Under the pieces are notes generated by a model. It saw only the letters and a program-made list of their open reading frames with translations. It was not told the DNA's origin and did not search any database. A DNA stretch of 63,973 bases, the filler included, from Hausera hauseri (lineage: Eukaryota): NCBI GenBank assembly GCA_046269625.1. It is 9 parts of 9 records of this genome, joined end to end, with 100 filler letters (N's around TTAATTAATTAA, not from the genome) between each part and the next. Parts side by side here need not be neighbours in the genome. Positions count along the whole stretch, not along the records: positions 27,619 to 36,747 come from JBJURY010452134.1; 8 more parts are not named here. One strand, 5' to 3'. Positions 5,982 through 56,995 of the stretch are shown here, in pieces. How positions within the stretch are numbered: the first letter of the stretch is position 1; every line of letters begins with the position of its first letter. The position numbers and the translations under genes are program-made.

Positions 5982-5984
5982 CGG

Positions 5985-8791: not shown

Positions 8792-8896
8792 CAATTATAG
8801 ATCAGGTTATCCTATAATCAGAAATAGAAAATGTTTTGCTTCAAAACAATGATCTGTCTTAGGATTAATCTTTATTTTTATTTTAGCAGAGTAAGT

Positions 8897-10803: not shown

Positions 10804-11154
10804 TTGAATGGACGTTGGTCACCGTGTCAGATGACCCTAAGTAAAGCTCCAGACCCCAAACAAAAACGGCTATATGGATGCTTATACCAAGACAAAAAAG
10901 GACTAGTATTCGAGCGAATTGAAGTTGACGAAAATCTCGTGGATATGGACGGAGGCGAGAAAGAAGAACGCCCCGTTTGCGACGCGAACCTATATCAAGG
11001 ACTTGTGGTGTTAGATAATAAGGATTGCACCCATAAATACTGTCGGTATTGCTTGGAAACGTGGACCCTGAGAAATGGGAAGACGACCTGCCCAGTATGT
11101 AGGGCTGAAACTACGAGGTTGCGTTACTTCTCAAATGGAGAAAGTAAAAAATAG
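10804..11154 (+). CDS. RING-HC finger protein fragment
   Basis: RPVC-x15-CTHKYCRYC-x12-CPVCR; first ligand is Arg (CGC, one change from TGC). Confidence 0.8.
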   Translation: MNGRWSPCQMTLSKAPDPKQKRLYGCLYQDKKGLVFERIEVDENLVDMDGGEKEERPVCDANLYQGLVVLDNKDCTHKYCRYCLETWTLRNGKTTCPVCRAETTRLRYFSNGESKK

Positions 11155-12601: not shown

Positions 12602-15600
12602 ATGATATACTCACCAAGAGAACCTAAGAATATTGAAACTAGATCGACAGTTTGGGACAACCCAAGGTTAAAAACCTTCCAACATATTGAACTGCATATT
12701 AACAACCGGGAACCGCTAATTAGTACTCATAAAATGGAAGAACTGCTTGTAGAAAATAATGAATGATATCCAAACGAGGAGTTAAGGCAGTTGTCGGAAA
12801 ACATAATATCCGCCCCAGAAGTAAGAATAAACGGACACAAAATATCAGTGACTAAACATTCGAAAGTTGCATCAAACTGTTTTGCAACCGTGATAGAAAG
12901 AAGACCTTTAGCCAAAATCATTATTGAAAATTGGGAAGTTTATGCGCTAATTGATACGGGTTCCGAAATGTATTACATCAGAAATGATTCAGTACGTCAA
13001 ACGCTAAGAGGACAGTTATGTTCGCCGTCTACGAAAGATCCAGGCAGTACGGGAGCTTTTGGCCAAACGTCGAAACCAATGTTTAAATGGAACAAAGAAG
13101 TCCATTTAATTGGACGAACATTTCGGCATGAATTTGCAATCATGGAACATTTAACTAATGATGTCGTTCTAGGATGCGATTTATTGAAAAGGCTACCAAA
13201 TATAGCAGACGACTTACAAACAGGAAGGCTAATTGAGATTAAACCGAAAAGGGGCGTGAAGAACGCTAAGGATAGAAAATTCGGGGAAGTGTGGATACCA
13301 GTAGACAAGAACATTCCGCCGAGTACGGAGATAATAATGTACGCACAGATTCAGAAAAATGACGATCAGCCAGTATATTTTGAGCCAAGGGAAACGTTAA
13401 ATCCTTATATAACACTCAGTAATGTACTAACAAAAGTACACTCCGGTCGTGTACCAATTAGAATAGCTAATAACGCGCAGACTCCTGTCAAGCTCCATGC
13501 TTATACTACTTTAAGAGACACGTATAGAGTATTGTCGATAACTATCGAAGAAAAACCTTATAAATATGCTGAATTTCCACCTCACGTCCAAACCAAGTTT
13601 TTACCTGAGTCTTACTGTCGGTTCTATGAACTATTGTTTAGATATAAATCGATTATCGCTAAGGACGAGGAAGATATAGGTAGAGTGAAAGCGTTAAAAT
13701 TGACTGCTCCGCTTAAGAAAAAGCCTGGTTCGAATGAAGAAATAGATCTGGAGGGTCAGAAGATGCCAAAATGGTACTTTCCACCACATTTATTAAGGCC
13801 TGAAATAACTAAAGAAGTTGAACGAATGCTTAAGGCAGATATAATTAGACCCAGTTACAGATCCTGGTACTCGCCTATCCTGATGGTTAAAAAGAAGGGC
13901 ACTACGAAGCACCGATTTTGTATCGATTACAGAGCTCTAAATAATCTTATGATAAAGGATTCTTTCCCATTGCCATCAGTGAAAGAGGCATTAGACCAAC
14001 TATCGGGAGCAAAATGTTTACCACTCTGGACTTACAATCCGGATATTGGCAAGTGGAAATAGAGGACGAAGATCGCTACAAAACGGCGTTCAAGACACAT
14101 GATGGAGTGTATGAATTTAACGTTATGCCGTTCGGTATTACTACTGGACCGGCCATATTTACGAGAATGATGAACAAAATGTTAATGGAATTGGATCATG
14201 CTTTTGCATATCTAGATGACGTAATGATAGCATCAAAAACGGAAGAGGAACACTTAAAGGATATTGAACATACGCTGATGCGTTTGGAACAAGCCGGCCT
14301 AAAATTAAATCCAAAGAAATGCACATGGGCTCAAAATGCAGTATCCTACCTTGGCCATATAGTTGGAGAGGGAGGATCCAAACCAGATAAGTCGTTGTTG
14401 AATAAAATATCGGATTAAATAGAACCACAAAATCTGAAAGAGTTGAGACACTGGTTAGGACTCTGCGGATATTACGCAACCTACATACCAGATAACTCAA
14501 AGATTAATGCGCCTCTATATTGTCTGCTTAAAAAGGGATTAAATGGAAATGGACAGACGTCGAACAGAAAGCCTTTGACAAGATGAAGAAGATATTTACG
14601 AGCGAACCTGTTTTACGGTACCCGGATTTTAGCTTACCGTTTATAATTAAGACAAATGCCAGTAAGGAATGTATTGGATATGAGTTAGCGCAGAAAAGAG
14701 AGGATGAAGAATTGGAACATCCGATTGCTTATGGAGGCCGTTCTTTGAAGAAAGCTAAAAAAAACTATTCCGTTACCGAGCTAGAGACTCTAGCCGTGAA
14801 AGAAGCACTGCGTCTTTTTAATGTGTATGTTTACGGTCAGAAAATTATAATCGTCACCGATCATAAGGCCGTTACAACCTTAAGAGCTGAGCAAATAACC
14901 TGACATGCAGACTATACAGATGGATCAAAGAAATCTCCAGATACAATATCGAATTCCAGTATAAGCCGGGAAACAAACATGTAGACGCTGATACACTATC
15001 GAGATTAAAGACTATGACAAGCGCAATCATTGTGTTGAAGAAAGGCCAACTTGAGGAAATAATAGACCGCCAACGCGCGTTAACTATATATAAGGCGATC
15101 AAAATTTCAAAAGAACAGAAAAAGGGTAATGTTATCCAGCAGATTATAGAATTTGCTAAGAAATATGTTATGCCAAAAGGACGACAGTTAAAGAAACATT
15201 TACACAGATATGAACATAAATACTGCGTCTTAAATGACGGGAACGAAGGAGGTATTCTATATTACGAAAGAAAAGAAAGGAAGTTGATAATTATTCCAAA
15301 GAGCTTACGAACCAAAGTATTGATGTCAGAACACGATTCATACTTAGCCGGACATATGTCCTGGAAAAAAACATTAGAAAGAACAATAAATAAATATTTT
15401 TGGCCGAGTATCTATATCGATGTAAAAAATTGGATAAATGCTTGCGAAGTATGTGCGACTAAACAAAAGAAAACGAAAAACTACATGGCGGAATTGAAAC
15501 CAATTAATGTGCCCGATAAATCCATGCAAGCTATGTCAATGGATATCGTAGGGCCTCTGCCTACGACCCACAAGAACAATAAGTATATCTTAACGTGTAT

Positions 15601-16390
15601 TGATTGATTAACTCACTTCGTCGAGCTGATAAAATTAATTGATCAAAAGACAGAGACTTTAGCAGAAGCAGTAGTAAGAAAAATTATTTGTCGATACGGG
15701 CTCCCAGATCAGATACTCACGGATCGAAGAAGAAATTTTATTAGTGAACTTTTCGAGAAGATTACCAAAATATTTGAAATCGAACGTTTAACAATTACTG
15801 CATATTATCCTCAGTGTAATGGAATGGTCGAACAGATGAATGCTACCGTCATACGTATATTATCAACAGTAGTCGCGAAAGATCAAAAAGATTGGGACGA
15901 ATTTTTGGTAGGAACGCAGTTTGCAATTAATACCACACCACATCCAGCGACAGGATTTACACCATTTTTTTATGATGTACGGACGTGAAGCCGTGTTTCC
16001 CACAGATTTTGGAATGATGCCATACACAGTCAGTTCCAAAGATTTAGAACAGAATTTCCCAAAAGTATTACAAATGCGGTTGCAAAAGTGTTGGGAAATC
16101 GCTAAAGAACTATCCCAAGAATATCAAGAGCAGTTTAAGAAACAATATGGTAAGAAAGCAAAACCGCATGATATAGAACAAGGGAATTGGATTTACGTAC
16201 ATTATCCGGTAGCCAAAAAGGGAGCCTCACTAAAATTGACTCGTACGGGTAGAGGACCATATGAAGTCACCAGAGTCACACCAACCACAGTGCATATGAA
16301 CAAAAATGGAAAATAAGAAATTGCGTCAATACAGGGAGTTGTCAAGACAGAAATACGACCCAGCAAACGTTATAATTTACGTCAACGTGA
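12602..16390 (+). pseudogene. pol: family B pol copy B2 (PR-RT-RH-IN)
   Basis: ALIDTGSE, RFCIDYRALN, LDLQSGYWQV, YLDDVMI, NYSVTELETLAV, HDSYLAGH..CEVC, MDIVGPLP, GRGPYEV, KRYNLR. Confidence 0.95.
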
Positions 16391-16399
16391 GGTAAAAAA

Positions 16400-17832
16400 T
16401 TCATCAATAATTACTAGACCAATATCATATGTTCAGATAGCCTTAGTATTATCGTTGATTGCCTCTTACATCCCAAAAATACAAGCACAATGATGGCACG
16501 ATAAATCTTCGTTAGGAGATATATAAAATTCGGAAAAGTGGATCAAAATCGGAAGTAGTCGAATCGGAAAAGAAACCAACAGCCGAAGAAATTCGAAAAC
16601 AAGAAGACACCAAATTATTACAATCATTGACAATCCACTATTATTCAGCAAACTCCGTATGCGTTGGATTTAAGACTTGAAAACCGCATTACGATTTCGG
16701 AAGGTTTCAAATTGTCTTGCTTGACTTAGCCACAAAAGCCACCAAAAATTGTGATTTGAAACTCGGAGAAAATATTCAGTGCTGCGATATAGATTTTGGA
16801 CACACGTATAACCTCACCTATCGTCTATACTTACCAGATTCATCTGAAGTTTATATTGAAACAAAGCCACATTCTCAATTAATCATTCTCGCATGGAACA
16901 AACATTATGAAGTAAAACTGAATGAAATATTACATTCTACGGACCCAGATATAAGAATACTAGACGAAAATATCCAGAGAATCGCTGTGAATAAGGACAA
17001 ACAATGTATTCAAGTGGACGCTAGAAGAGGATTAACCTTCAGTCAAAAAATTAGTATCACGTTTGAAGCAACAGTTGGACCGACTCCGAAAATAGACTAT
17101 TGTTCAATTCGAGCAGGCGTGCAAAACCCATGCTGTAAAATACCCGTAAACCAAGACTTCAACATAAGATTCGACCTATATGAAGTACGGCCTAATAAAC
17201 CAAGTATACAATTTTGAACTTACTACCCAGAAAATAAAATTTGGAAAATTTCGGCAGAGACAACTACAAGAAGACCGATAACTCAAGTCAATACCATTAC
17301 GGCAACCGTTACGTTGGCCAGTGTGCCGGATAGAGTATTAGAAAGCATTCCTATTAAATATTCGGTATATCGGTCTAAAATCGTGTTCTTCGTAGAAGGA
17401 AAACAAAACTACAATGTATACATAAATTGTCGGACGACGTATAATAATCAAGTGGTGACGCTATTTAAAAATACTTATCAAACAGAGTGCAGCTTATTAA
17501 AACCACAAACCGAATATATAGTACAAGTATTTGCAGAAAATAAACAAAATCAGAAGATTACATTGCAAACTTTAGATGCAATTCGCTCAGAATCCCATAC
17601 ATACGAGGACATAGATGAGCAGACCACAAATCCAATCACTACACAAGCTCCAATGGGATTAACTACGCTACCAATTGCACCTATCTCCATACTGTCAACG
17701 TTTGTTCTAATTACACTAATTGCGATTTTTCGACTAGTCACCAAAAACTGTTGTTCTAAGAGTCATAAAAATTCAGAATGGGAACTAAGGGAATTGGCGA
17801 ACCCCGTAGACCCATATGATAAGATAACCTGA
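16400..17832 (+). pseudogene. FN3-like type I membrane protein (B2)
   Basis: Homologous to 7445..8791; CSLLKPQTEYIVQVFAEN fits the FN3 LxPxTxYxVxVxA consensus; TM segment and PYDKIT* tail. Confidence 0.78.
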
Positions 17833-17841
17833 CAATTACGG

Positions 17842-18487
17842 ATGAGGTTATTCTGTCATCAAACAAAGAATTGGTTTTGGTTTAAAACCATCCTTTGTTT
17901 TAAGATTAACCTTTATGTTCTTTTGTTCAGATTGGTAAGTACTCAGACCCAGATGGAACCAAGCCGAATTAGTATCGACGCCAAGGAAGTTCCGAGCCGA
18001 CTTAGGATCGATACGGAGGAAACGACCAGTCGACTTAGTATCGACGAGTTCTTACAGAAATATGTGACAGTCCGGATCCCAAATTCAAAGGCCGTCTATA
18101 GGCAAATTAACACCGAATTACAAGGGAAGAATTCTGTTTCATACGGGAAAGTTGGCGAAATCCTAAACGGTTTGAAAGGAACGACTGAGGAGGCCAGAGC
18201 CGTATATTTTTACGCATGGAGGGAAGACAAAGATGCTAGGACATACCCCTTTAAACCGATCGCTCAATATCAACCAGATAAAGAACAGACGATATATGTG
18301 CATTTGGCAGACGGGGAAATATACTATCGGCTGAAGGATCAAAAATGGGATTCTTTCCAAGGAAGGCAAAGCCGGTTTAGTACCTTTGTATTTAACAGTA
18401 GGAACCTCCGACATCACGAATTGGAATTTCGCGTAGCTGCACGGCCAGTAAAAATGATGATCAAAACAACGGAGGAAGAAACAATGA
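17842..18487 (+). CDS. accessory ORF N-terminal domain (B2), truncated before the exonuclease-like domain
   Basis: IYVHLADGEIYY and ELEFRVAARPVK are shared with B1, B3 and B5. Confidence 0.65.
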
Positions 18488-19518
18488 CTGTCTTGACTGT
18501 TTTGACATCATTTCTATTTAAGTGATCTGTCTTTTTAATCCCGGTTAAATCGAAAAATGTTTCTCTTACTCGTTTTCTCTGGTTTATTATCCTAGAGTAT
18601 GTTTCTTCCCGAATATTCTCGAATCGAAACTTCGATTGGAATCTCATACCCATAATCACCTTCGCCTTGATTTATAGCGATGATTTGTACATTACGTCCA
18701 TCTTGGAATAGTCTAAAAGGCTGATCTAGTTCTTCCTCCTTTGGATATTGCTGATATTTAAGGTAGGTAACTGCATATAGGGTGCTTCTTCATATGTAAC
18801 CTCAAACATGAGCTTTATTGGCAGTGCAGTTATTCGAAATTCCAATTCGTAATTGTACAGATCTCGGCTGCTTAAATAGAGAGTGCTGAAACGATACCGT
18901 TTCCCTTTGTTAACATCCCAATTTTTCCCCATTATGCGGTAGTACAATTCACCTTCCGCCAAGTGGATATAAATCCCTCGGTGGTATACTGGTTCATATT
19001 TAATCATATTTGTTAAGGAGCATCTGAACTTTGTCTTATTGCATAAAAGCCTCTAGTCCTGTTTTCTTCGGTTGTACCTTTCAGGTGATTGGGGATTTTA
19101 TTGGTTTGATTGAACTCGACTAATGTATTTTCATGCATTTCAGTAGTAATTTGTTAATTTGACAGTAGATGGACTTCGATTGTGGTATCAGAACTGTTAC
19201 ATATCTGTCCAGGAAATCATTGATATCGCATTCCTTGATATCGTTGTTTTCGGCTTTCATCGTCATAGCAATAGTTACGCTTCTAAAAATAAAAAAATTT
19301 AAGGTTAATCCTAAAACAGATCATTTTTCGAAAATAGAACTAATTCTCTGTTTTCTTGGTGGAATAACCTGATTTGTAATTATCAGGAAATTTCATCATA
19401 GGTTTCGTCTCGGGGTGCCATTACCCTTAATTCTCTTCCTTCGATTTTATGACGCTTATACTGGCAATTTTTGGTAACTAATCGAAAAATCGCAATTAAC
19501 ATGATTTGTGCATATAAT
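18488..19518 (-). mobile_element. family B copy B3, inverted: membrane-protein tail plus accessory/exonuclease-like ORF
   Basis: Minus strand reads LIAIFRLVTKNC..TYDEIS*, then IYIHLAEGELYY..ELEFRITALPIK and FDLTGIKK. Confidence 0.8.
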
Positions 19519-20573: not shown

Positions 20574-21534
20574 ATGGTTAGTTCTTTTATATACCATCTG
20601 TTTTGTTTGTATGGCATCCAAGGTATACCATATGGTATTCAGTCAAGATTTCTACCAGTCTTTTTGCGATCTAAATCGTACTCTTTAACCGTTCTAGGAT
20701 TATTTAAAATACTTTACATTCCATAAACCTTGAAAACATTTTATGCTCCGGCCATTGATTTATTTTGGAATAAAATCGGATGGCTTAGGTTAAGTGTATT
20801 TTTACTTTTTTTAAATGCCGTTTTTATGTCACTGATAAATTGTGACTCGAGTTTTTTACTGATTTGTTTACTATTTACGTTCAATTTTTTCTGTGCCACC
20901 CAAGATGTTGCGTTGGACGGGATAATGAATGCAAAACTAACGCATGGTGAATTGGCAATAGGAAATATTGCTCAAGTTGTTGGATACAAATGCGGTGGTA
21001 TTGTTGGAGGTGGTCTCTTATTGTTTCTGAGTTATTATTTTGATTGGCATTTTTTATTCCTTTTAATTTCGGTTTTTTATTTTGCTGCATTTTTGTCGAC
21101 GTTTTTGTTGGATTTTTCTATCAAAGACAAACAATATGGTGGTATTTTTAATTTCAAAGAGTATTTTTCGCTTTTAAAGTCTAGTATTTATTCCGATTTT
21201 ACAATAACGGTTTCTGGATTTGTATTTATTTATAAATTGGGTGAACAAGGTGCATTAGCGTTGCTGCCGTTGTTTTTATTTGACAATGGAGTCAACATGA
21301 AGGATATCGGATTTTGGATCGGAATTGTTGGTCAGTTGGTGTCGATTTTCGGTTCATCATCTGCTTCGGTGTTTATGAAAAAGTAATGTTTATTTTTTCT
21401 GATTGTTTTTGATAATTTCTCCTTAAATAGAGGATTCTGGAATTCTTTATATTCCCTATCAATTACCAGTGTTATTTTGCATGTTCTCATTCTTCTGATG
21501 GTCGCAAATTATTCTACCGGTGGTGTCCATTTCT
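20574..21534 (+). pseudogene. MFSD3: MFS transporter MFSD3/AmpG-like, exons 20574-21382 and 21431-21534, one in-frame TAA
   Basis: LYGIQGIPYGIQSRFLPVFLR, ATQDVALDG, GNIAQVVGYKCG, YKLGEQGA; 48-nt GT..AG intron 21383-21430 restores frame; next donor GTAAGT at 21535; TAA at 20724 where Trp is expected. Confidence 0.8.
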
Positions 21535-27618: not shown

Positions 27619-30200
27619 TGTTTCGTTGCACAGACCTCACAAGCGTCCACCCAGTTTTTCACATCTATATAAACGCTTGGCCAGTATTACTTATTCAACA
27701 TCCTTTCTACACTTTTCTTCCATGACGTATGTCCAGCTAAATGTAAATCATGTTCTGCCATTAACAATTCCGTTCGTAATCCTTTTGGGATAACTACCAC
27801 TTTCCGTCCATTTCGTTCGTAATATAAAATATTGTCTTGATTCCATGCGTAATATTTGTGCCCGTGTCTCTGTAAGTGTTTCTTTAGCTGACGTCCCTTC
27901 GGTATTTCATCTAGCTCGGCAAATTTGACCATCTGTTGGATAACTATATCTTCAGCTTGTTCTGAAGAAATTCTGATTGTCTTATTTAGCTTTAAAGTTT
28001 GTTGTCGCTTGACTAATTCTTCGAGCTGAGCCTTCTTCATGGTAATACTTGTACTTGTTTTTGTTTTAAGTCTTGATAAAGCATCTGCGTCGACATGTTT
28101 GTTTCCGGGTTTATATCGGAATTCGATATTATATCGAGAGATTTCTTCGATTCATCGATTTAGTCTGCATGTCGGGTTATTGGCTCGTCTTTTCAATGTT
28201 GTAACAGCCTTGTGATCGGTAACTATTATAATTTTCTGCCCGTAGACATAGATATTAAAATTCCTTAAAGCTTCTTTCACGGCTAATGTCTCTAGTTTAG
28301 TGACTGAATAGTTTTCATCGGCTTTCTTAAGCGATCGTCCTCCATATGCAATTGGGTGTTCTAATTCTTCGTCTTCTCTTTTCTGAGCTAACTCGTAACC
28401 AATTCCTTCTTTACTTGCGTCTGTTTTAATTATAAATGGTAAATTAAAATCTGGGTATCTCAACACTGGTTCACTTGTTAGAATTTTCTTCATTTCGTCT
28501 AACGCTTTGTGTTCGACATCGGTCCATTTCCATTTGATACCTTTTTTAAATATCCGATATAGTGGCGCCTTTATTTTCGCATTGTTTGGCACATAAGTGG
28601 CATAATATCCACATAGGCCTAACCAGTGTCTTAATTCTTTCTGATTCTGTGGTTCCATACAATCCGATATTTTGTTTAGTAAAGATTTATTTGGTTTTGA
28701 CCCTCCTTCTCCATCTATATGTCCGAGATAGGATACAGCATTTTGTACCCATTTACATTTCTTTGGGTTCAGTTTTAATCCAGCCTGTTTTAACCGCATA
28801 AGAGTGTCTTTGATGTCCTTTAGGTGTTCTTCATCTGTTCTTGATGCTATCATTACATCGTCAAATTGTACGAACGCATGATCGAGTCTCACTAACATTT
28901 TATTCATCATTCTGGTGAATATTGCTGGGCCGGTTGTTATACTTAACGGCATGACGTTAAATTTGTAAACTCCGTCGTGCGTCTTAAACGCTGTTTTGTA
29001 GTGATCGTCTTCTTCAATTTCTACTTGCCAGTATCCTGATTGTAAATCCAGTGTAGCGAACCACTTCGCTCCTCATAATCTGTCTAACGCTTCTTTTACT
29101 GACGGTAGTGGAAATGAGTCTTTCATCATAAGTGTGTTCAGGGCTCTGTAATCTATATAGAATCTATGTTTCGTGGTACCCTTTTTCTTTACCATAATTA
29201 TTGGTAAGTACCAAGACCGATAGCTTGGTCATATTTTGACAGCCTTTAACATACGTTCCATCTCTTTGGTTATTTCGGGCCTCAATGAATGGGGCGGTGG
29301 ATACCATTTAGGCATCTTTTGCTCTTCCAAGTCAATCTCTTCATTGGAGCCAGGTTTCCTTTCTAATGGAATCGTTAGTCTTAGCGTTTTTGATTTGCCT
29401 ATGTCTTCCTAGTTTTAAACAATAATGCACTTATATTTGCATAATATTTCGTAAAACTGACAATATGCTTTTGGCAAAAATTTTACCTCAACATGAGATG
29501 GGAACTCGGCATATTTTTAGGGTTTTTCTTCGCTTGTTATTGCCGATACTTTATAAGTATGACCCAATGCAGTATTGGCGTACAACTTTAGGGGAGTCGG
29601 CGCATTATTCACTAATCTGACTGGTACTGTTCCTGTCGTTACTCTTGTCAAAATGTTACTGAGTATGATATTTGGGTTAACGTCTTCTTGTGGCTCGAAG
29701 TATACTGGTTGATCATCCTCTTCTTGGATCTGGACATAAATTAGCATTTTGGTTCTGGGCGGAATATTTTCATCGACGGGAATCCCTACTTCTTCCAGCT
29801 TTCTTCCTTTCTTTGTTTTAATCCCTTTCACTGGTCCCAATTCAAGTAGCTTTCCAATCTGCAAGTTTATTGCGATATTGGGTAATTGTTTCAGTATATC
29901 GCAACCTAACACTAAATCATCAGTTAATTGATCCATTACGGCAAACTCGTGTCGAAGGATTTGGCCCATTAATTGAACTAAGGGGCTGCATTTATATTTT
30001 GGTTTAGATTCTTGCCTGACGGCTCCTATGCTGCCTGGGTCTGACGACGATGTTAGCTGTAGTTGCTTTCATAGTGTCGGCGGTATTGATACTAACTTGA
30101 TGAACGATTTCTCTGATCCGGTGTCGATTAAGTCATAGACTTCCCAATCTTCAATGGTAACTTTTGTGAAGGGTCTCCCTTCCATAAGTGTTCCATAACA
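27619..30200 (-). pseudogene. pol: family B pol (B4)
   Basis: ORFs 30069..30665, 29517..29969, 28152..28952, 27687..28040; DLIDTGSE, FDDVMI, IKTDASKEGIG, HDLHLAGH. Confidence 0.93.
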
Positions 30201-30799
30201 ATTTGACACGTCCTTTGGTCGTTTAATTAAAGAAATCTTATGTCCGTTTATCGTTATTTCTGGTGATGAAATGATGTTCTCGGTCAACTGTTTCAGTTCT
30301 TCGTTAGGGTAGAAGTCGTTGATTGCTACGCTACCTGCGTTGCTTCTAATTAACGGTTCTTGTATTATTTGGTTTTGGAGCGATTTCATTTTTTGTGTTC
30401 CCCAAGATGTTGATCTTGTCTTTATATTAAGAGCTATTCTCTGCGAATACAATATCCTATGGTCATCTTCCGCTCGTCGTTGGTTAGTAATCTGCATTTT
30501 CTTCAATACTCCGTATTGTTTTGTTCCTTCATAAAGTTCCTCATAGCTAAAAGGTTTTCGACAGAAATCCGATTTGTATGACACCATAGGTGTTGTATCA
30601 CAATCTTCGCATATTGGAGCCGTTGGCGGCGCGATGGGCAAGTGTGTCTTGTTTACTGAATACATTTTATGTCTATTTTGTTTGAGGATTGCTTCTCCTC
30701 CCTTAGGCTCGTCATCATCGGAGACATTTCTTTGTTTTGTTAATTTCTTAGCTCTGCGTTCCGATAGAAACGTGGGTCTTGCTCGTCTTTTATAATTAT

Positions 30800-32650
30800 G
30801 ATAGCGACGTGGCGTTCAACGTCATTTTTCCATTGGTTTTCTTCGTATGCTTTAAGCATTTTGCCGAATGGTGTGATGATTGCAGTTAAAATCTTGCAGG
30901 AAAATCCTGCTAGCATGAATATTTTGTACCCGCTCGGATTACCGCTTTTACTAGTTGTACTAAGAAACAGATTGCTAAAAATCTAGATGCGGCTTGTCCA
31001 AAAATTAAAAATCTTCCACATATTTTGTAGAGTATTTCTGTGGTTACCCGTTGGTAATGGTTTACACCAAGTAAGGATTCCCATTTAGCCTGATATCGAG
31101 TATCGTCAACTACTGATGCCATAGCTCGATTTAATTCGTGTGTTCGTTGTCGTGGAAAAGCAAAGAATTGTCGAAAAGTTTCGATTTTTTAGGCCTGTAA
31201 ATACCTTTATGAGATGTATCCTGAAACTTGTCATCAGTAATTCCTTTTGCTAATTTAGTCCCAGTAAGTTTTTTAGGAATGATAGTAACGCCTCCATTAG
31301 GTAAGCTAACCCAATCTGGTTCGCTACGCCTAAACATTGGTTCACCCAGACTTGCCTTGCAATCCTTTAAGATGGTTGGTTGTGTCGCATTATCAAGCAA
31401 CACTTTAGTGAGGGGCATGGCTAGACGTGCAGTATTTTGGTATATTACAGGGAGCTCTTGTATGCATCGTTTTTCTTCGACATTAATTGGTACATCTCTT
31501 TTCTTGCATTCGTAGGTCAGTAGGACCTCGCCAGTAACTCGGCCGAAGATTCCTTCTCTTATAGGAATGATCGGTGAAGCTAACTCAATGTTCGCAGAAA
31601 TAAGAGCTAGTTTTGTCCTCATAATTTCCGTATCTAATTTATAGTCGTTGGTTATCATTTAATGATATAACTCGGTTATTCCGATTTGTCCTTTATAATC
31701 GTCTCGGTTTTTCAGATAATCTTCGATTCTAATGTCTTGCGTTTTTAAGTTGTAGGTTTTCGCGCTTATCTCCGTTTCTGCGACGAAGAACGCTTCGTAG
31801 TTAGTGGTGAACATTACTACTTCGCAACATGAAATCGTTTCCTTTTTATGAATTTCAATCCATGTTGATCAGAGATTAATATCGTAGGTGTATGATCCTC
31901 TGATACGTCTTCACGTGCTCTTGAACTGATGTCGGATTTGTCTACGTATCGTTTCACGGTAGTTTCATTAAATTTCAATTCCTTAATTTTAATAAAATTA
32001 CAACCTTTTCCAGCGGGCGGTTCCCATTTGACGATCGAACTTCTGAAAGCACAGGTTCCGTCCTGTATATGACATTTTTGATTATCGGTATATAGCTTAG
32101 TGACGCTATGGAACATCACTTTCTAGACTTGCATTTATGATTTGTAAAAGTCTACTACTACTACGTTTGCTTCCAGGCCCTTTCCAGTGTTGTATTTTTC
32201 TCCACTACGGTGCCCGTTATGCATATCTAACCTTCCACCTACTACCTTGTATTCCGTAATTATCTTTCCAGGCTGCATTTCTAGTTCCATACTATCCCAT
32301 TTCAATCTTCCGGTTTCTCTGGCCTGCTTGCAGTGTTGCCTTTTCTAATTTATTTGGATTGGATGGGTTGTTGGTTTAATTATTGAGGAGTGCCCATGCA
32401 TTATCCCACAGTGAAAAATCCTACGAGATCGTCTCAGCATACATTCCATGCCATCCAAAGATATCAACTCTTGTTGTTGATACAGGAAATAACTCTTCTC
32501 CTTTGTCTCAAATTTGTGTGGTCTGGAATCTCCGCACGCTTTTAAGTCCATTAATGAATATTTTTGTCCGAGCTTAAACCTATCACAATCGTAGACGGTG
32601 AGAGAACACCCATCTGTTTTATTAGCATCATTATAGTGAGTAGGCTGATT
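30800..32650 (-). pseudogene. env: chuvirus-like (class III) fusion glycoprotein / env
   Basis: In order: TVYDC..SLMDLKAC, RRIFHCGIMHGHSS, CHIQDGTC..VKW..C, GEVLLTYEC, CIQELPV..PLTKVL..C..PMF..W, GIY, then TM FLIFGQAASRFLAICFLVQLV. Order and spacing match chuviral glycoprotein motifs (YDC, CGMHSH, GEV..C, CY.ELPV). Confidence 0.8.
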
Positions 32651-33936
32651 AACCAACTGGATTCATTCTTTCGGTTGTTATTATCCGTTGTCGTCAAGTT
32701 CCGTATGATATCTCCTAGTCCATTATTACTGTTCCTATTATCTTTTTCCTTGTCAAATAATTTTAGCCAATTTATCTCATACGGAAGCTTTCTAGCTGCT
32801 TTTCGTGCCAAGCTTGTAGCTCGGTTCAGTTCATTCTCTCGAATTGAATTTGTCTTGATCGCCAAGTACAATAATACTTTTCTTAGCTCTTCTATCATAT
32901 GTTCCACCATAATTTTCTCAACTACTGCATTGTCAGTTAGGCTACTTTTTGGCAATTTGAAACGCGAACTTCTCGTTGTCCTGGCTGCGTTGAATATCGC
33001 CTTTTCTTTCTCATCTAATATATCGCCGCGAAGACTTGAATAGTTTACAATATGTATTAGGTTCTTCATTAACTCGTTTAACTCTTCATTGTCGGTGCTA
33101 AAAGTATGGATTGACATCTGTCTTAACTCTCTTATCTGTTTTCCATTATAGTCAATTTCTTCTAGGGGCTTTCTAGGTCTGCCGACTGGGCGTTTCGGTC
33201 TTGGAGCATTATCTGGTATTCCACTTAGCGGTACTAGATTCTTGTCGTATTGTTCCTTGTCTTCGAAATACATTGCCGCATCTCGTACACCCATGATTTT
33301 TCCTACGCACTGTTCCGTTTTAGCCTTCCGCGTGACTTCTTTTTTTGTTTGTTTATTTGCTAGCGTTACTACTATTCGATTTATTTCGTCGGGGATGATT
33401 CCTACGTCTATTAATTGTTCTAAATCGTCGAGTATTCTTCCTCTAAAGTAAAATCTGTAATTCAGTTCATTTGTTCCGCCGTTATTTAATAGCCATTCTC
33501 TTACGTCCTTCACGTAGGAGTGCGTGGTTAGCTCACGTTCTTTTTCGTTTATCCACTCGGATGATATCATTATTTTCATCGTTACCTCAGGTTTACCCTT
33601 CATGATTTTTGCATACTTCTTTATTAAAAGTTTCGGCACCGTGTTGTAAATTATGTTTTCATTGGATAACTTAGTCAAAGTTGGAATGAGTTGTCTGAGC
33701 TTATTTTCAGTCATATTCACATTAATTAATTCCATCAAGTCCTTCTCGGTTAACGCTGAGTCTAGGAGCATCGCCACATTGAATTTCCTGTTCTGCGGAT
33801 ACATTTCTGTTTTATCTAGGTGTACTGGAGTTACCGGATTTTCGGCCGTTATTTTTTCTAAATAATCATTCCATTCTGTTTTATTCCCAATATCTGGGAG
33901 TCCATAGTCTACTAGAGCTGTGTTCGTTCTTTGCAC
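32551..33936 (-). CDS. 461-aa polyprotein segment: ubiquitin-like domain, AT-hook, helical region, C-terminal signal-like segment
   Basis: [26 protein letters not shown] resembles ubiquitin [33 protein letters not shown] AT-hook; [12 protein letters not shown]. Confidence 0.7.
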   Translation of the reverse strand: [461 protein letters not shown]

Positions 33937-33978
33937 ATTTTCTTGAATTTCTTTTAGTCTTGGTTATATTTCTTTCAC

Positions 33979-36145
33979 CTACGTAGTTCGAAAACTTATT
34001 CGGTTTCCACAGGTATATTGAATTATTTTTAGTAGTTCGCATAATTCGTTAGAATTGATAAATCCCTTCTGGTGATAATCGGTTAGTTCGATGATTACGT
34101 CCCTTCGCCATCTCTGCACGAACTCTCGCTTATTTTTGATCTCTGATTCGGTAAAAGCGTATTTGATCCGATAGCTTTTAAACTCTTTTACCAATTCATC
34201 TAGCCTCTTTGCTCTTTGTTTCGTTCTGATGCACGTTTCTTCAACTTGTTGTAATTCGGGCATCAATTGCCTTATCTTCTCATCATTAATCTCCACCATT
34301 TCTACCAATAAGTAGGCTAGCCCATACATCTCATTTATAAATTTTGCGTCGGGATCTATTGCACCCAGCAATTTCTTTACGAACTTGGATTCTTCGACAT
34401 TAAGACGTTGGTTGTTTCATATTTTTGTCAAATGGGTCTGGCAATTCTGGTCCGTAGCGGCTATCCATTATCGTGGTTTGTGCAAGAATCTGACTGCCTC
34501 TATTAGGGCTACTCTATGTTCTGGGCAAATACCTAATGTTTCGATATCATGGATCGAAATCTTGTCGATAGGTTTCTCCGTTAAATGTTAAATTCCTTCT
34601 CGTCGGATGTTTCTTAACCTTGAGTAAAAATTTCAAGTCGTATTTCGCTTTTCTGTAAAGTTCGTTTCTTCGAAAATGTTATAGATTTCTTCCAATATTG
34701 TCATTTCTTGTTTCTTCTTCATAAAGTTTAATTGTCGTAATGATTCGAATCGTGTCCGGATGTCTATTTCTGTTTTTATGGTGTTTAAGTTACGTGTGCC
34801 TTCTTCTAGTTGAATTTTTACAGATGGTTCGCTTTCCGGAAATTCTTTATTACGGTTTTTTACTAATTTGCTTAATCTCGTTATTAGTTCGGACCATTCT
34901 GACAATTGATTGGCAATTATTGGCTTGGCTAATATTGCATCTTCTAATTCATCGTCTGGCTCTTTTATGAAGTTTATAAATTGGCTAACATAATTAAGCT
35001 CATCCTTATATTCGTCGAATTCTATGATACAAGCTTTTATTACATATTTGGTTTCTTCATTATTCACGAACATGATTTGATTTCTTAAACTATTGATCTG
35101 CAATCTTTTTTCATTCTCCATTTTGATGCGGCTCTCTAATTCCGCATATCGTCGGTTTCTGACAAAGGCAATTTTTATCATCTCCATTAAGGGAGGAATA
35201 TCTACTGGGTCTACACCCAATATTTCTAAATCAGTATTACTTCGATTGCTGACCTGTTGTTTTCTAAGCCGATTAATCATTGCATAACGTATCTCATCCA
35301 TTTTGCGCTCTAAGTTTCGGGTCACTCTTTTCAACTTAGAATTAGCTTTCAAGGTAGATAGCAGTGTTTGCGCTTCAGCGACTTTTACAACTACGACTTT
35401 TTTACAAGCGACTTTTACTCCACTCTTAATCCACGATTCTAATTCGTGGTTCCATTTTATCAACGTATTTCGTGGCGCCTATTCCGGTTGTTATAATTCG
35501 ATTGCTTCGTCTAGCTTCCCTTCGCTACATAATTTTAAACTTTTATATAATTTTTCCGCAAATTGTTGCTCTTTACCAGATATATCTGTTTGTTTACTGA
35601 TCTGTTTAAATCTCTCTAAATTGTGTCGGAATATCTCTGGATCGTAACATCTAATTCTCATTTTCTTTAATTCGTCGGCATTCTTCCATGAAAGTCGAAC
35701 TTTCCATTTTCTTGCATCCAGATAATTAATATCTTCCGTTTCTTCCTCACTAGCGGGAAGTGGACAGATTTCATTAATTTCGTCATTAACATTTATTATC
35801 TCTGGTGTTTTCAAGACTTCTGGAGTCCCTTTCTGACGTAACGAAAGTATCTGATGACGAGTCGTCTCTTAGGCTAGCAGTATAAAAATCTACTTTTTCT
35901 TCCGCGTCTTTCATTATGAGAGATCTTGAGTGAGTCTTGGATCTTCTCTTAGGCGATGGGCTTCTGCCTCTGTTCTTTGTAATTTTGAGGACTAAGGGCC
36001 CGATAAATTCACTTTCAACTTCATCTGTTATTTTGTCTGAGTTATGCATTACGGCTTCTAATTCTGTGTCTAAGTCTACATTTTGAGATGTTGATGGTTT
36101 CTCGGACTGAGCTATTCCTTGCGGGACAGACTTCTTACGTGCCAT
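33979..36145 (-). pseudogene. long charged/helical coding region of unknown function between gag and the Ubl domain
   Basis: Consecutive same-strand ORFs 35786..36145, 35491..35814, 34633..35463 and 33979..34371; the first is in frame with the Zn knuckle apart from isolated stops. Confidence 0.6.
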
Positions 36146-36399
36146 ATTAGTATTATTTGGGGCCAGTGCCTATTCTTCTTCGGTTTGTGGTTCTCTCAGT
36201 CCATGATAGACTTCCATTAGTCGTAATTTCTCTACATACTCTTTTCTAGCTTTTATGACTTGAGGATTAGTACTTTCGGCTAGGTTCCTTGCAGATCTAT
36301 GCAGATCTTGCATTTCAATGATCAGGCTTATATCACCTCGTTTACCCTAGATGGCTTCTAAATTATTTTTAATCATACTTCTTTTGTTTGGTTCAGTAA

Positions 36400-36747
36400 A
36401 TGTGACATTTCTAGGATTTGGGCATTACCTGGCGATATATCCTTCTTCACCACATGTAAAGCAAATTAAATTTCCATTCCGACCAATCCTTTGTCTGCCA
36501 TCCTCATTCACAGGCGATTTCGCTCTGTTTGTATTCTTATACTGGCCCTGTAACATCTGTCTATTGTCTCCATCATATCTATTATCATTATTCCGATTAT
36601 CCATATATTTGATATTAGGTTGGTAACTACAGTAGGGGAAAATGGCGGTTCTGGCCCACCCCCGGGGGGGTGGTAATCAATAAAGCGATTTTGCACATGT
36701 GCCGATCGGTAGTGCACCCGGAGCACTATTGATCCATAAAGTGCCTG
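36400..36747 (-). pseudogene. gag: family B gag C-terminus with degenerate CCHC knuckle
   Basis: LICFTCGEEGYIAR*CP (CX2CX4HX4C with His to Tyr), preceded by an Arg/Asn/Gln-rich stretch. Confidence 0.75.
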
Positions 36748-43331: not shown

Positions 43332-45699
43332 AACGTTTAAACTCAAGAACTTTCTCTTAAAATGCTATATACCGTAGTTTTATATGATGTCATTCAGTAC
43401 GCTAAAAAGATAAAAGTCCCCTGTCTCGTCTGTATAGGCAAGTTAATGGAACAGCGAAATTGTCAAAAGCATTGCCAGCAAATTTATCATTGTTCCAAAA
43501 CAAAGTCTGTCCAAGCGAAAAGCAAGTTATCCTTCAAACAAATACATTATCCGAAGCCGTGAAAAGAAAGTAATCAGACGGAGTTGGGAAAATTTCCGTC
43601 AGGAAGAAAAGGGGCCAATTAGAAAACAAAATAATTCCGAAAGTGACAAACGAAAACGACCTCCGATCAAAATCTAAATGACATTAAACAAATGTTCATT
43701 TCACTCACATCCGAACATTTTGAAAATGGCACTTTGAGTTATCAGCACAATATCGGAAAACCGCATGATTGCTGGTGGTATCTGGGGACTATCTCGACTG
43801 CTACTAAATTGTTTATAAATCCAGCGGTTTCTAGATATTTTATTCTTGATTTATCCGTGTCACTGTTTTTCTTTTTTTTAATTTGAACGTCTTTACATCT
43901 ATTTGATTATTTTCTTCCCGCCCCGCAATTTCATTCGATGTATCAGCTTCGTTGTCTATCAACATGAAGACAGAAAATGACGAGTTATCTGATTCAGTCT
44001 ATTTGTATCGTTACCATTTCATATGAAGATGAATATTTTTATTTGGAACAAAATTCTCCCCTTGCCTTCTGGATATGTTACTATAATTAATTCATTTCAG
44101 TATTTCCTATACCGTTATCCGATAAGGTTTCATCCGAATGAGATTTGTGCTATCGTACGTTTTTCATCAAGGATACTAGTGATGGTGGTCACAATTACGA
44201 TTGGTTGTATTTTTAATATTGAATTTTAATTTTTTATTAAGCTAATGCTGTTAATAAAGCTCTCGAAGGCCTGTTCCTTTTAATGTGTGGTTCATAATTA
44301 AATTGGTTTTCTTTTGATTTTTTTTCCCAATTTTCAGTGCGACGCATTATTCAGAATAATAGACCGTTTCAAACGTTTGTTTTAAGAAGTGTTCCATCAG
44401 TGAAAAAGATAACACCGTATGACAATTTTAAAATTCGCTGCATTATATGCTTTACGAAACCAAGGGTCACCGTTAATCAGAATTTATTGGCTGAGGATCA
44501 AGGCGATGCGTGATCTGCCTCGTTGAATTGGTACATGGAAACATTGTTGCAACATTATCATGCTTCTGCAAATAGTTCTATTATTTATTTGTTTTGTTTT
44601 CTTTGGATTTTTATGCAAAAGTTATTTTTCTCGTGAAAGAGTTAAATTTTGTGTCGAACAAGTGAACTTGCACTTTATTGGGAATGAAATTTCATTGTTT
44701 GTTTTAATAAAGAAAAAAACTGAAGGAAATAAAAAAGAATATTGAATTAAAAAATAAATCAGCCGTATTTTTTGGGAAATTGTCATTCGATTTGATTTTG
44801 CCAATATCATTTAGAATCGGTTTTATTCAATTTTGTTACGAAATCATACTCAGCACAAGTCTTATCAAGACCGTTCTTTTGGGGAATACAATCATTTGCA
44901 ACTATTACTTCAACGGAATTTTATAATTTAACGACAAAATATTTTGCGATCCAAATATCGAGTTTAACCCTATGAAAAAAACGGAATTGCTTCCGAGTTT
45001 AAAGGAAGGGGAATTCTTGAACGTCAAGGATAAATTTCTTTGGTTGTTTTATTCGCTTGGTATTAATAAGAAGGAATACATTGATCATGAACGGATGTAT
45101 GCCGAAGCAGATGCCTATTGTTTCAAAATTTATCATGAAACAAAAATTAACAACGATAATTCCCTAAACTGTTTCCACTTAACAAAACATATGGTCCAGA
45201 ATTATTCTTCGCGAGTTCGCGGTGGTGCTGATTTGGATTGGCATGGTCCATGTAACCATAGAATATTCAGAATTTGATTTTGCAATAAATGTTTTTTTGT
45301 TCATTTTTATGTTTGCTCACTGCCCGACTAAATATTAGTGTGTGATTAATTACAACTTCGATTACATTTTTAGAGGCAATTTTGTTTTACTTCATTCTTT
45401 CTATCTGTTACTAGTATACGAAATCTATATAAACATGAATGTGATAATTGTATAATTTAAGGTAGAATGCGAAGACGTCAGTTTACTGAGGAAGATAGAA
45501 ATGTTGAACGATGTGTGGCTTTAAACGGATCCCATGTCGATTTGAGGATAAATGTTGAAAATAATGGTTTATTAGACATGAGACATGTTCCTCGACATAT
45601 GACACTAAAACTAAAAGAAGTTGACCGTTTGCGGTAATGTAAGATACAGTTTGGTGGTTTAGTCGAGTTTGAGAAGATTGTTGACGGTGACATTAGAAG

Positions 45700-46782
45700 A
45701 TGGAGGTTATCTCCTCGTGCACAAGCATGGAATGAAGACTTTATCGAAAATGTTGGACAAATTTTGAACGAAAAAATTGTTACGTATTCGGAATGCGGAA
45801 GTGGGTGGAGATTACGTCGGATTATTGAATATAAATTTACTGTAACAAAGACATCTGTTATTATATACTTGTCCGGACGATCATATATTAAAACACCTGG
45901 GGGCCTTCATAAGCCAAAGTTTATAGTAAATGTTCAAAATTTGAACAATAATTGTTTTTGTACAGCATTCGTGCTGTACTGCATTAAGATGATGTACGAC
46001 ATAATCATCATCGGCCAAATAATTATCTTCCATTTATGCATGAATTGAATTATGAAGATAGCGAAATGTCAATGAAATTATCTGGAATTTGCAGCTTTGA
46101 GCAAAGAAATCGACGGCTTGCAATTAACGTTTTTAAATACATTAATGATACCAATGATGTAATTGATCAGAATCAGGACGTGTTTAAAAACCCACATGTT
46201 GATATTTTGTATCGTACAAAAACCGTTCATCAAGTCGTATTGTTAACCTATTGGTACTTGAAGACTCTGACAGATTTCATTACGTTGCCCTTGTAAATTT
46301 AAATCGACTGCTGAATTTCAACAATTAGGTGATTCGAATAGGCTGCAAATGGTGTCAGATTTGTTTGCATGGCTTTATGTCAAAAGGCATATGACAATCA
46401 TGTTAAATTATGTAGAGACAATCGCGACCATACAACCCTATATGTAATGCCAACATCGAAAAGCTGTCAGTTTACCGACTGGTCTAAGCTTGCATCTCTG
46501 GCTTTTGTCGTGTATTTGGATTTTGAATCTATCTTACCACCTTGTGATGGGTTTCAACAGAAACATATTCCGGTAGCTGCTGGCTTGTTGCTTGTTCCGT
46601 TAAAGGATATGGAATCAACGCCGCAATACTACCATTTCGTAGGTGATAATTGTATTATTGACTATTTGTCATGTTTGGATACTCTGGCAAAGACTGTTGT
46701 GGTTCCATGGTATGATAGGAATACTCATTGCCCTATGTTTTCATTATCCGCTGAGGATGAGTATGCGTTTCTTCATGTATAA
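45700..46782 (+). mobile_element. Polinton/Maverick-like DNA polymerase B N-terminal region fragment, frameshifted
   Basis: GSGW, GRSYIKTP..IVNVQNLNNNCF, FEQRN..AINVF, C2H2-like HVKLC, FVVYLDFESIL and QKHIP, in the order seen in invertebrate Polinton-type pPolB proteins. Confidence 0.65.
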
Positions 46783-50335: not shown

Positions 50336-51274
<939 letters not shown>

Positions 51275-51826: not shown

Positions 51827-54800
51827 GCACCCTTATACTGCTTACTTAAAAAAGGAACTAAATGCAGATGGACGGACGTCTAACAGAAAGCCTTCGAAGA
51901 AATGAAGAAGATATTAACAAGTGAACCTGTTTTACGTTATCCAGACTTTAACTTACCTTTTATAATCAAGACAGAAGCCAGTAAAGAAGGCATTGGATAT
52001 GAATTAGCGCAGAAAAGAGAAGATGAAGAATAGGAACACCCGATTGCTTATGGGGGACGTTCTTTAAAAAAGGCCGAGAAAAATTATTCTGTTAATGAAT
52101 TAGAAACTCTAGCTGTAAAAGAAACACTTTGTCATTTCAGTGTGTACGTATATTGGAAGAAAATTATAATTGTCACCAATCACAAGGCCGTCACAACCTT
52201 AAAGGGCCGAGCAAATAACCCAACATGTAGACTTAACAGATGGATCGAAGAAATTTCCAGATATAATATCGAATTTCAATAAAGCCAGGAAATAAACATG
52301 TAGATGCCGATGCCTTATCAACATTAAAGACTAAAACTAGTGCGATTACAGTAATGAGGAAAAGTCAGCTGGAAGAAGTAATAGATCACCAACGCGCCTT
52401 AAAGATGGATAAAGTAATTAGAATCTCAATAGAACAAAGAAAGGATAAGGTTATTCAGCAGATTATAGAATTTTGCTAAAAGGGATATCATACCCAAAGG
52501 ACGGCAGTTAAAAAAACAATTATACAGACATGGACATAAATATTGTGTCCTGAACGGTAAAGGCAATGAGGATATTTTGTATTACAAACAAAAAGGAAAG
52601 AAATTAATAGTTAACCCAAAGAATTTACGAAACCGAAATTTTAACTTCAGAACATGATTCATATTTGGCCGGACATATGTCCTGGAAGAAAACACTAGAA
52701 AAAGTAATGAATAAATATTTTTGGCCTAGTATCTACATTGATGTAAAAATTGGGTAAATGCATGCGAAGTATGTGCCACTAAGCAAATGAAGACGAAAAA
52801 CTATATGGCCGAATTAAAGCCAATTAATGTGCCGATAGACCTATGAAGGCCATGTCTACGGATATTGTAAAACCCCTTCCTACAACTCACAAGAACAGTA
52901 AATATATCTTAACGTGTATCGATCGGTTAACTCATTTTGTTCAGTTTATAGCATTAATTGATCAAAAGGCGGAAACCTTAGCAGAATCTGTAGTAAAAAG
53001 AATTATTTGCCGATACGGACCTCCAGACCAAATACTCACCGATAGAGAAAGAAATTTCACAAGCGAACTATTCGAGAAAATCACGAAGATTTTCGAAATC
53101 GAACGACTAAAAACTACTGCATATCATACTCAGTGCAACGGAGTGGTCGAATGGATGAATGCCACCGTCATACGCATATTATCAACAGTAGTAGCAAAGG
53201 ACCAAAAGGATTGGGACGAGTTTTTAGAAGGAACCCAATTTGAAATTAACACCACACCACACCCAGCGACAGGATTCACTCCATTTTTCATAATGTATAG
53301 ACGTGAAGCCGTGTTACCCATGGACTTAGGAATGATGCCATACACGGTTAATCCCGAAGAATTAGAACAAAACTTCGCGGAAGTCTTACAAACACGGTTG
53401 CGGAAGTGTTGGGAAATCTCTAAAGAATTATCCCAAGAATACCAAGAGCAGTTTAAAAGCAATATGATAAGGAAGCAAAACCTCATAATATAGAACAAGG
53501 AAACTGGTTTTATGTGCATTATCCAGTAGCTAAAAAGGCACCTCATTGACTCGTACAGGCAGAGGACCGTACGAAGTTACCAGGGTGACGCCAACTACAG
53601 TATATATTAACAAAAATGGAAAGGAAGAAGTCGTGTCAATACAAAGAATTGTTAAGACAGAGATACGACCCAACAAACGTTACAACTTACGCCAACGCAA
53701 GAAAAAATCCTCCTCAATAATCATTAAACCGATCTCGTACGTTCAGATAGTTTTAGCATTATACTTAATTGCTTCTTTTATTCCGAAAACACAAACCAAA
53801 GGGTGGCACGATGAATCTACACTGAAAGATAATTACGTAACTAGGAAATGAGGAGCAAGATGAGAGGTTAGGAAAACGGAAAGAAAATCATCGGTCGAAG
53901 AAATTCAAAGGTCACTACAGTCAATGTCGATTCGCTATTACTCGTCCAACTCCACATGTGTTGGATTTAAGGTGCAGAAACCACATCCCAAATTTGGAAG
54001 ATTCCAAATCGTCTTAGATGATGTGATAACAAAGGAAACCAACAATTGTGACTTCGAGCTTGGAGACAACATGCAATGTTGGAACGCAGAATTCGGACGC
54101 ATTTATAACCTTACCTACCGTTTGTATCTACCAAACTTATCCAAAATCTATGACACAAGGCCACCATTTCAGCTAGTTATTCCTCCTCGGAACAAAAATC
54201 ATGGAGTATAACTAAAGGAAATGATGAGATCTACCAAACCAGACACAAAAATTTTAGACGGGAATATCCAGAGAATTTCGGTTAATAACGCAAAGCAGTG
54301 CATTCAGGTAGGCACCTGGATAGAGTTAACGATTAATCGAGAAATCAGTATCGGAATGATTCCGAAAATACAATATTGTTCTATTTGCACGGGTATACAA
54401 CACCCCTGCTGCAAACTACTTGTGAACCTAGAATTCAAAATAAAGTTTGACTTATACTAGATACGGCCTAACCGACCAAGTATACAATTACGAACTTACT
54501 ATGCAAAAAATAGAATTTGGAAAATTTTAGCGAAAACCACGACCAAAAAGATTAACCAAACTGTCACCACAAATAACATACCTAAAACAGAACTGGAGAG
54601 TATACTTATCAAATTTTCGTCCCATCAGTATAAAATCGTGTTCTTTGTAGAGAAGAAACAGAATTACGATATATACGTAAACTTTCGGACAACGCATAAC
54701 AACCAAATTGTAACATTATTTAAAAACACCGATCAAACAGAGTGTAATTTACTAAAACCGCAATCTGAATACATAGTACAAGATCATGCAGAGAACAAAC

Positions 54801-56113
54801 AAACCCTAACAATTACATTACATACCTTAGACGAAACTCACGCAGAACCGCATAAAAATATATGCGACGAAACTATAACGCCCTTTACTACTAGAGCACC
54901 ACTAGGATTAACTGCCTTGCCGATTGTATCTATTGCAGTACTGCCGACATTTGTTCTCATTACGTTAACCGCGATTTTTCGATTAGTTACCAAAAATTGT
55001 CATTTTAAGCGTAAAGGAAATATAAAGCGGGAACTGAGAGAACGGGGAGACCCCATTGATCCATATGACAAAATAACCTGACAATTACAGAATGGGTTCT
55101 TCTGCCATTTGATAAAAAATGGTTTTATTTTAAAAATGACCTTTATTTTAAGAATAATCCATATTATTTATTTCCCAGAATCGAAAACAGTGGAATGTCC
55201 GAACGACGTAGAATCGACGAACGAGAAGGAAGAAACATTTCCACCTGTCGAGTTAGTATCAACGAATTTCTTCACAACTATGTTACTGTTCTCCTTATGA
55301 ATTCAAATTCAATTTATCGAGAAATACATAATGAGCTGCACGGAAAGGGCCATCATAAATACGACCAGGTCCACGCCATACCCAGTAATTTAAAGCGAAC
55401 GACCGAGGAAGATAAAATCGTCTACCTCTATGCTATAAGGAAAGATCGTGATGTAAGAGCCTATTAACTTAGACAATTAATAAATTTCAAAATCGGTCAA
55501 GATGTGTTCATCCACTTAGCAGATAGCGAGATATATTAAAGATTACAAATTCAAGAATAGATTACACAAAAAGGAAGAGAGTACAGGTTTAGCACCCTAA
55601 AGATCCAAAGCGAAGACTTACAAAATAAGGAATTGGAATTCAGAGTCGCCGCTCTTCCCGTCAAAATAATTATTGAAGTAACGAAAGAGGAAGAAAGAAA
55701 AAACATGTTACCACCCCTAGAATTTCGGGTTAGACCGTTAGAAGCGGAGGTAGTAAAATCTTTGTATTCCTATAGATTGGTACCCCACACTAGAAACACT
55801 AAAATTATTGCTGTGAGCTGTGGCAAAGGAAATGAAGCGGACAAAATCCAGATGGAAATTTCAATCAGGGAGACGGACGGAACGGAATTATATCACACAA
55901 TAATTAGCCCAAGGAAACGGATCAGAGACTTTCTTTGACCAAACAGGAATCCGTAAAGAAAACTTGAAAGAAGGAAAAGATATCAATAGGGTACAAAATG
56001 AACTGGCCCATTGTCTGTATGGATGTATCCTTATCGGATATCGAATAGAAGAAATTGTATCGTTACTAGAAATTTCTTATTCAGAAATAGCAGGAATAAG
56101 AGAACATAATACG
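51827..56113 (+). mobile_element. family B copy B5: RH, integrase, FN3-like membrane protein, accessory/exonuclease-like ORF
   Basis: Integrase ORF 52843..53493; 53546..53851 links GPY and KRYNLR to the signal segment; 54638..55081 FN3/TM/PYDKIT; 55633..56113 exonuclease-like. Confidence 0.9.
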
Positions 56114-56946: not shown

Positions 56947-56995
56947 CCAAGATGAAAACAAATTAGATACTGAATTAAATGTTGTTGAAATAAAT

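Follow-up and report, generated by a model that had tools for sequence, protein, structure and literature searches.

A probable ubiquitin-like domain, paired with a helical module, between Gag and Env of a decayed Ty3/gypsy element from Hausera hauseri

An Ubi/SUMO-like domain situated between Gag and an in-frame Env is already known from planarian retroelements, having been published for Burro (PMC6431247). In these giant gypsy-like Burro/GYPSM1 elements, whose internal region reaches up to 25 kb, the Ubi2/SUMO-like domain (PF11976) lies between MATH and BCL2 domains, env stands in frame between gag and pol, and a dUTPase-like domain is found between the protease (PR) and the reverse transcriptase (RT) (PMC6431247). 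RING, BIR, MATH and ubiquitin-like domains occur together in Burro elements (PMC6431247, PMC13465017). A further group relevant here is formed by the errantiviruses with a GAG-ENV-POL gene order and an HSV/gB-type envelope protein, which Chary and Hayashi (PMC13524379) report for Platyhelminthes, Bryozoa and Nematoda.

The DNA analysed here (the window, 63,973 nt, positions 1-63973), from an animal host, consists of nine contigs joined by eight identical N44-TTAATTAATTAA-N44 linkers, and the linker map of the whole window shows that contigs flanking a linker are not genomic neighbours. The 9.1 kb contig at 27619-36747 contains a Ty3/gypsy element on the minus strand, in which a Gag zinc knuckle remnant is followed by an accessory region (X), gB-type Env fragments and pol. 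This copy is dead: it has accumulated 23 stops in 2992 codons together with several frame changes, and the contig ends truncate it at both sides, cutting gag and pol. The knuckle (36422-36463, minus strand; zf-CCHC, E 0.031) is interrupted by a stop, and the remainder of gag is lost at the contig end. The Env fragments (30913-32662, minus strand) match PF24664 with E-values of 1.5e-07, 1.7e-09 and 4.2e-06, and pol (27621-30815, minus strand) runs in a single frame with eight stops through protease, a PR-RT insert, RT, RNase H and the start of the integrase. Both this PR-RT-RH-IN order and the placing of a gB-type env between the knuckle and pol are those of the GAG-ENV-POL gB-type errantiviruses, within Ty3/gypsy.

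The upstream part of X (33964-36400, minus strand) is mostly helical and charged, carries stops and one frame change, and yielded no domain assignment in Pfam or PDB searches. A stretch at 34629-34470 (minus strand), picked out by eye for its SAM-like look, had no Pfam or PDB match. The rest of X belongs to a 470-codon stop-to-stop open frame (32551-33963, minus strand) that houses a helical module (33613-33738), the ubiquitin-like segment that immediately follows it (33358-33579), an AT-hook-like motif (33166-33204) and a hydrophobic segment (32602-32658), all on the minus strand. The last of these, the most hydrophobic 19-mer of the ORF, aligns with the pre-Env hydrophobic segment of an intact relative, P0012 (described below), and sits where the relatives have their Env signal peptide; between it and the Env ectodomain the reading frame changes. 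Since the ubiquitin-like segment and the motif share one 470-codon open frame, which ends in this pre-Env hydrophobic 19-mer, the region is coding polyprotein and not, as a preliminary description had it, a gag-env spacer. A Bcl-2-like domain considered downstream of the AT-hook-like motif was rejected after Pfam and PDB searches gave no match.

As far as published descriptions allow, the element shares with Burro/GYPSM1 an accessory region between Gag and a pre-pol env, a probable Ubi2/SUMO-like domain at that place, a long helical stretch and a PR-RT insert. Its insert is homologous to residues 1979-2117 of P0012 and has no dUTPase match in Pfam or PDB, a single knuckle was seen, and MATH, BIR, ankyrin and BCL2 domains found no Pfam or PDB match in X; because these four domains and the dUTPase went undetected, we liken the element to the Burro layout rather than place it in Burro. 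The preliminary description regarded neither the ubiquitin-like segment nor the AT-hook as a normal Gypsy domain, which holds for ordinary Gypsy elements but overlooks the Ubi2/SUMO-like domain published at this place for Burro/GYPSM1 (PMC6431247). The section on Burro in the same paper, compared here by description only, mentions no AT-hook. With the errantiviruses of PMC13524379 the element has in common the gene order and the PF24664 gB-type Env, and the Env of both P0012 and the window copy resembles, by eye only, the Platyhelminthes C1a rows of that paper; the window copy differs from those elements in being broken and in having an X region longer than that of P0012. The main texts of PMC13524379, PMC6338049 and PMC5408684 mention neither ubiquitin, RING nor AT-hook.

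Homology searches with the whole 470-aa ORF, with pieces of Env and PR-RT, and with RT in viral contigs found no relatives, and an RT scan of metagenome contigs returned 21 distant loci with 36-64% identity over partial stretches. A pol search of long proteins gave 45 proteins. Through pol alone, this led to P0012 (3771 aa) and P0014 (3761 aa), two intact single-ORF Gag-X-Env-Pol polyproteins that are the best two of 44 RT-RNase H BLAST matches (42% and 41%). They are also the only two of the 45 that match the 470-aa ORF (E 8e-06, residues 76-218, 29-31% identity), and since they were chosen through pol, this match was not selected for. Local alignments of the region to P0012 and P0014 score 129 and 126 against shuffle means of 53 and 58, with none of 1000 shuffles in either case attaining the score. 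Taken separately, the helical module scores 72 against P0012 (0/2000 shuffles), and the ubiquitin-like part is matched by 6 of 2000 shuffles for P0012 and by none of 2000 for P0014; the region after it, compared with P0012 alone, gives no significant alignment (781/2000).

The helical module and the ubiquitin-like segment thus lie together at the same place in P0012 and P0014 as in the window copy, at about 30% identity. Of the cluster members, 22 are listed (15 of 21 and 7 of 7); 20 of these contain the two-part module, in two distinct versions only, and the two that lack it are short. Two other gag-env-pol proteins of the set, P0015 and P0026, have no counterpart, and when the window and the other 43 long proteins were searched with a profile of the module, no further copy emerged (best E 0.12). 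An internal repeat of the helical module further upstream was considered and rejected, its score being attained by 78 of 2000 shuffles. Beyond the module, P0012 and P0014 share with the window copy the Env (27-32%), the PR-RT insert and pol, in the same order, and their env lies in a single ORF where that of the window copy is broken. They differ in having no GRP motif, in possessing extra proteases and in an RT identity of only ~42%; in P0012 the distance from knuckle to signal is ~432 aa as against ~1268 codons in the window copy, whose upstream X is ~830 codons longer. A quick RT tree puts the window element on a long branch with P0012 and P0014 nearest by path, in no supported clade. Each of these two proteins has three retropepsin-like (RVP) stretches, two before RT and one after the integrase.

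We read these observations as an integral ubiquitin-like domain and a small helical module, set downstream of the Gag knuckle and upstream of the Env signal segment, whose role in the active ancestor would have been that of a cytosolic docking module on a released leader and not of a tag; we put the probability of this reading at about 0.65. The suggestion of a protein-interaction module, made in the preliminary description, fares well in this light, a non-conjugatable ubiquitin-like module being favoured at the level of sequence and conserved in the intact relatives.

The same description had the module possibly acting with the element's RING, together with a tether to AT-rich DNA, and in its full form this alternative makes the ubiquitin-like domain the partner of a family RING in an element-encoded ubiquitin-ligase module that the AT-hook holds on AT-rich DNA. 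A real C3HC4 RING does exist in the window (10972-11103, plus strand; zf-C3HC4, E 3.7e-07), and the joint occurrence of RING and ubiquitin-like domains in Burro, noted above, is in keeping with such a partnership. It is, however, located in a separate contig (7256-12501) and, the nine contigs being joined by linkers, on a contig other than that of the element; contig 27619-36747 itself contains no RING pattern. The sole link between the two is a chain of homology: pol of the element has 71-73% DNA identity to contigs 12602-19518 and 51827-59688, and the post-integrase ORFs of these are ~33% identical in amino acids to those of the RING contig. The RING thus placed probably belongs to a related family member and not to this copy, although the family may carry one. 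Furthermore, P0012 and P0014 keep the ubiquitin-like domain in polyproteins with no RING Pfam match and no GRP motif, so the module needs neither in cis. We therefore regard a ligase partnership as unlikely.

The window contains several further features on other contigs. In three related copies, an fn3-like/transmembrane ORF (fn3, E 0.026) and an unassigned ORF follow the integrase, at 16400-18525, 7445-9586 and 53864-55935 (all plus strand), and the membrane-type tail after the integrase of P0012 and P0014 has no detectable similarity to these fn3-like/transmembrane ORFs. Within contig 12602-19518, an inverted duplication of the post-integrase ORFs with 67-73% identity spans 18595-19505. Uninterrupted fragments resembling host genes, namely an MFS transporter, a Ufd2/UBE4 core, MIOS and a Myb repeat, are present at 20727-21386 (plus strand) and at 5496-6014, 6205-6735 and 50468-51064 (minus strand), some of them adjoining other Gypsy elements. 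ORF fragments at 45638-46779 (plus strand) look by eye like a DNA-polymerase-B-type mobile element and have no Pfam match.

The AT-hook-like motif is a single basic stretch that lies, as first described, in the same frame as the ubiquitin-like segment. What stands of the AT-hook assignment is a GRP core with basic and proline flanks, sufficient for a loosely defined AT-hook and shared, including the Lys/Arg and Pro flanks, with the HMGA type; what does not is the central RGR of HMGA, replaced by VGR in a motif that is present once only, the central Arg being stressed in HMGA studies (PMC11354804). GRP[RKP] arises by chance in 175 of 20000 shuffled versions of the ORF and in 333 of 5000 shuffles of an element-sized residue pool, and tighter GRP patterns, which were set post hoc, are rarer (2/20000); the six frames of the window contain just two motifs of the GRP[RKP] type. 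None of the 22 relative sequences has the motif within its first 900 residues, and the motif is outside the conserved unit formed by the helical module and ubiquitin-like segment. The literature that we searched held nothing relevant as a precedent for an AT-hook in LTR-element polyproteins. We consider the odds that the motif is functional in this lineage to be about even; it is likely to represent a lineage-specific basic patch for nucleic-acid binding or nuclear import, and a tether to AT-rich DNA is possible.

Translation from 33579 to 33358 gives a 74-residue segment that ends in IVVTLA and lacks a C-terminal GG, as originally quoted. Submitted alone, it gives a Pfam ubiquitin match at E 0.056 and 13.7 bits, which falls below the gathering cut-off of 25.4 for PF00240/PF11976 and is at the level of noise, because tiles from neighbouring regions reach unrelated Pfam matches at E 0.0045-0.07 by chance. 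A single-sequence PDB search likewise returned ubiquitin chains at E about 1. A profile built from the three versions of the module (window, P0012 and P0014; A3) aligns to ubiquitin along its full length, the first and last strands included (profile positions 8-79), and finds 171 PDB sequences at E<=10, with a best single-domain E of 0.004 and 2.5e-05 for polyubiquitin; natural mono-ubiquitin is matched at E 0.1-0.3 only, and one protein accounts, through its variants, for the PDB rows. Among the 60 best PDB rows of the profile, 55 belong to ubiquitin, ubiquitin variants or ubiquilin, a count that includes four names that we take to be ubiquitin, and four control queries retrieved 0, 1, 0 and 4 rows at E<=10. 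In the ESM Atlas (recognition 3128), the 30 matches of the segment comprise 24 unnamed entries and six in four named cluster sets, all four of which have PF00240 or PF11976 (score 0.90-0.92). The equivalent segment of P0012 matches GABP-alpha at E 0.008, which we take to be a beta-grasp match; that of P0014 has no Pfam match, and the second strand of the window copy aligns poorly.

The AlphaFold models do not display the beta-grasp pattern that had been noted at the outset and that the profile and Atlas comparisons favour. The single-sequence model (pLDDT 58.5) has no beta-grasp and only weak ferredoxin-like fold matches with Z at most 4.1, and the model from a three-row alignment (pLDDT 47.4) also has none, with the ubiquitin-like half built as helices. 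Three fold searches on these models gave no significant match, and with model confidence so low the missing beta-grasp is no evidence either way. The helical module is modelled as helices at pLDDT 50-62 and falls into no Atlas family (best 0.77), its fold being unassigned. It could be argued from these models, and from the noise-level E-values of the single sequence, that the likeness to ubiquitin is due to chance and that what is conserved here is an alpha/beta or helical domain with a different fold. This is improbable given that the match improves and spreads to the whole domain once the two pol-chosen relatives are added, that the independent language-model features of the Atlas indicate the same family, and that the control queries come nowhere near the 171 rows of the profile. 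Segment 33579-33358 is, with good confidence on these sequence comparisons, a ubiquitin-like domain. The C-terminal Gly-Gly of a conjugatable modifier is absent from all three versions, and the position facing Ile44 of ubiquitin is Tyr in the window copy and Glu in P0012 and P0014, which together indicate that the domain is not a conjugatable tag and does not closely mimic ubiquitin; the substitutions at the Ile44 position also argue against classic proteasome-receptor binding.

For the docking module that we favour, the ancestor would have been one Gag-X-Env-Pol polyprotein, as is P0012. Since X precedes the signal segment, it would face the cytosol, and the viral protease and signal peptidase would release it as a leader. 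The ubiquitin-like domain would bind host protein-handling factors (of the p97, proteasome or trafficking type) through a non-canonical surface, and docking by the two-part module would extract, route or thin out polyprotein parts made in fixed ratios, in order to manage a polyprotein that has to thread Env into the ER and gives equal amounts of Gag, Env and Pol. We propose this specific role, the docking of host protein-handling factors for management of the polyprotein, only tentatively.

The location of X directly upstream of the Env signal segment also recalls regulators of the Rev/Rem kind, in which case the released leader would act as an RNA-export or nuclear regulator, with the GRP motif binding RNA or serving as an import signal and the ubiquitin-like domain aiding extraction from the ER membrane. 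The signal peptide of MMTV is extracted by p97 and is a Rev-like protein (PMC5371415), Cer1 codes for an RNA-export protein, CERV (PMC10309623), and some AT-hooks bind RNA (PMC4615771). These are analogies without homology, however, the relatives have no basic motif, and a UbL added to the MMTV peptide caused its degradation (PMC5371415), so that we give this explanation little credence. We rate as more doubtful still a wider scheme in which the nucleocapsid-to-Env-signal region of such single-ORF enveloped retroelements would be a conserved accessory protein built on the helical and ubiquitin-like module, an invertebrate counterpart of the Rem/Rev-type leader, and in which the present lineage would have gained an AT-hook and perhaps a SAM-like domain, allowing the released leader to enter the nucleus and, with the family RING, to recruit the ubiquitin system to AT-rich chromatin. 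Co-option of the stretch as a host gene that still functions inside a dead element is very improbable: its 470 stop-free codons compare with an element average of 23 stops in 2992 codons (P about 0.027), but this value is post hoc, being taken on the longest of several pieces, and neither an own start nor a promoter was identified.

The feature is real, and the ubiquitin-like domain is probably a true one, integral to the polyprotein, for which we infer the function proposed above. The layout itself is not new; what is added here is the conserved unit of helical module and ubiquitin-like domain, along with the lineage-specific AT-hook-like motif. This extends the one-line published note on the Ubi/SUMO-like domain of Burro to a smaller and distant lineage. 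The unit keeps ~30% identity between elements that are just 42% identical in RT, whereas the rest of the X region is freely gained or lost, and it offers a compact target for asking how enveloped retroelements that make a single polyprotein use the host ubiquitin system.
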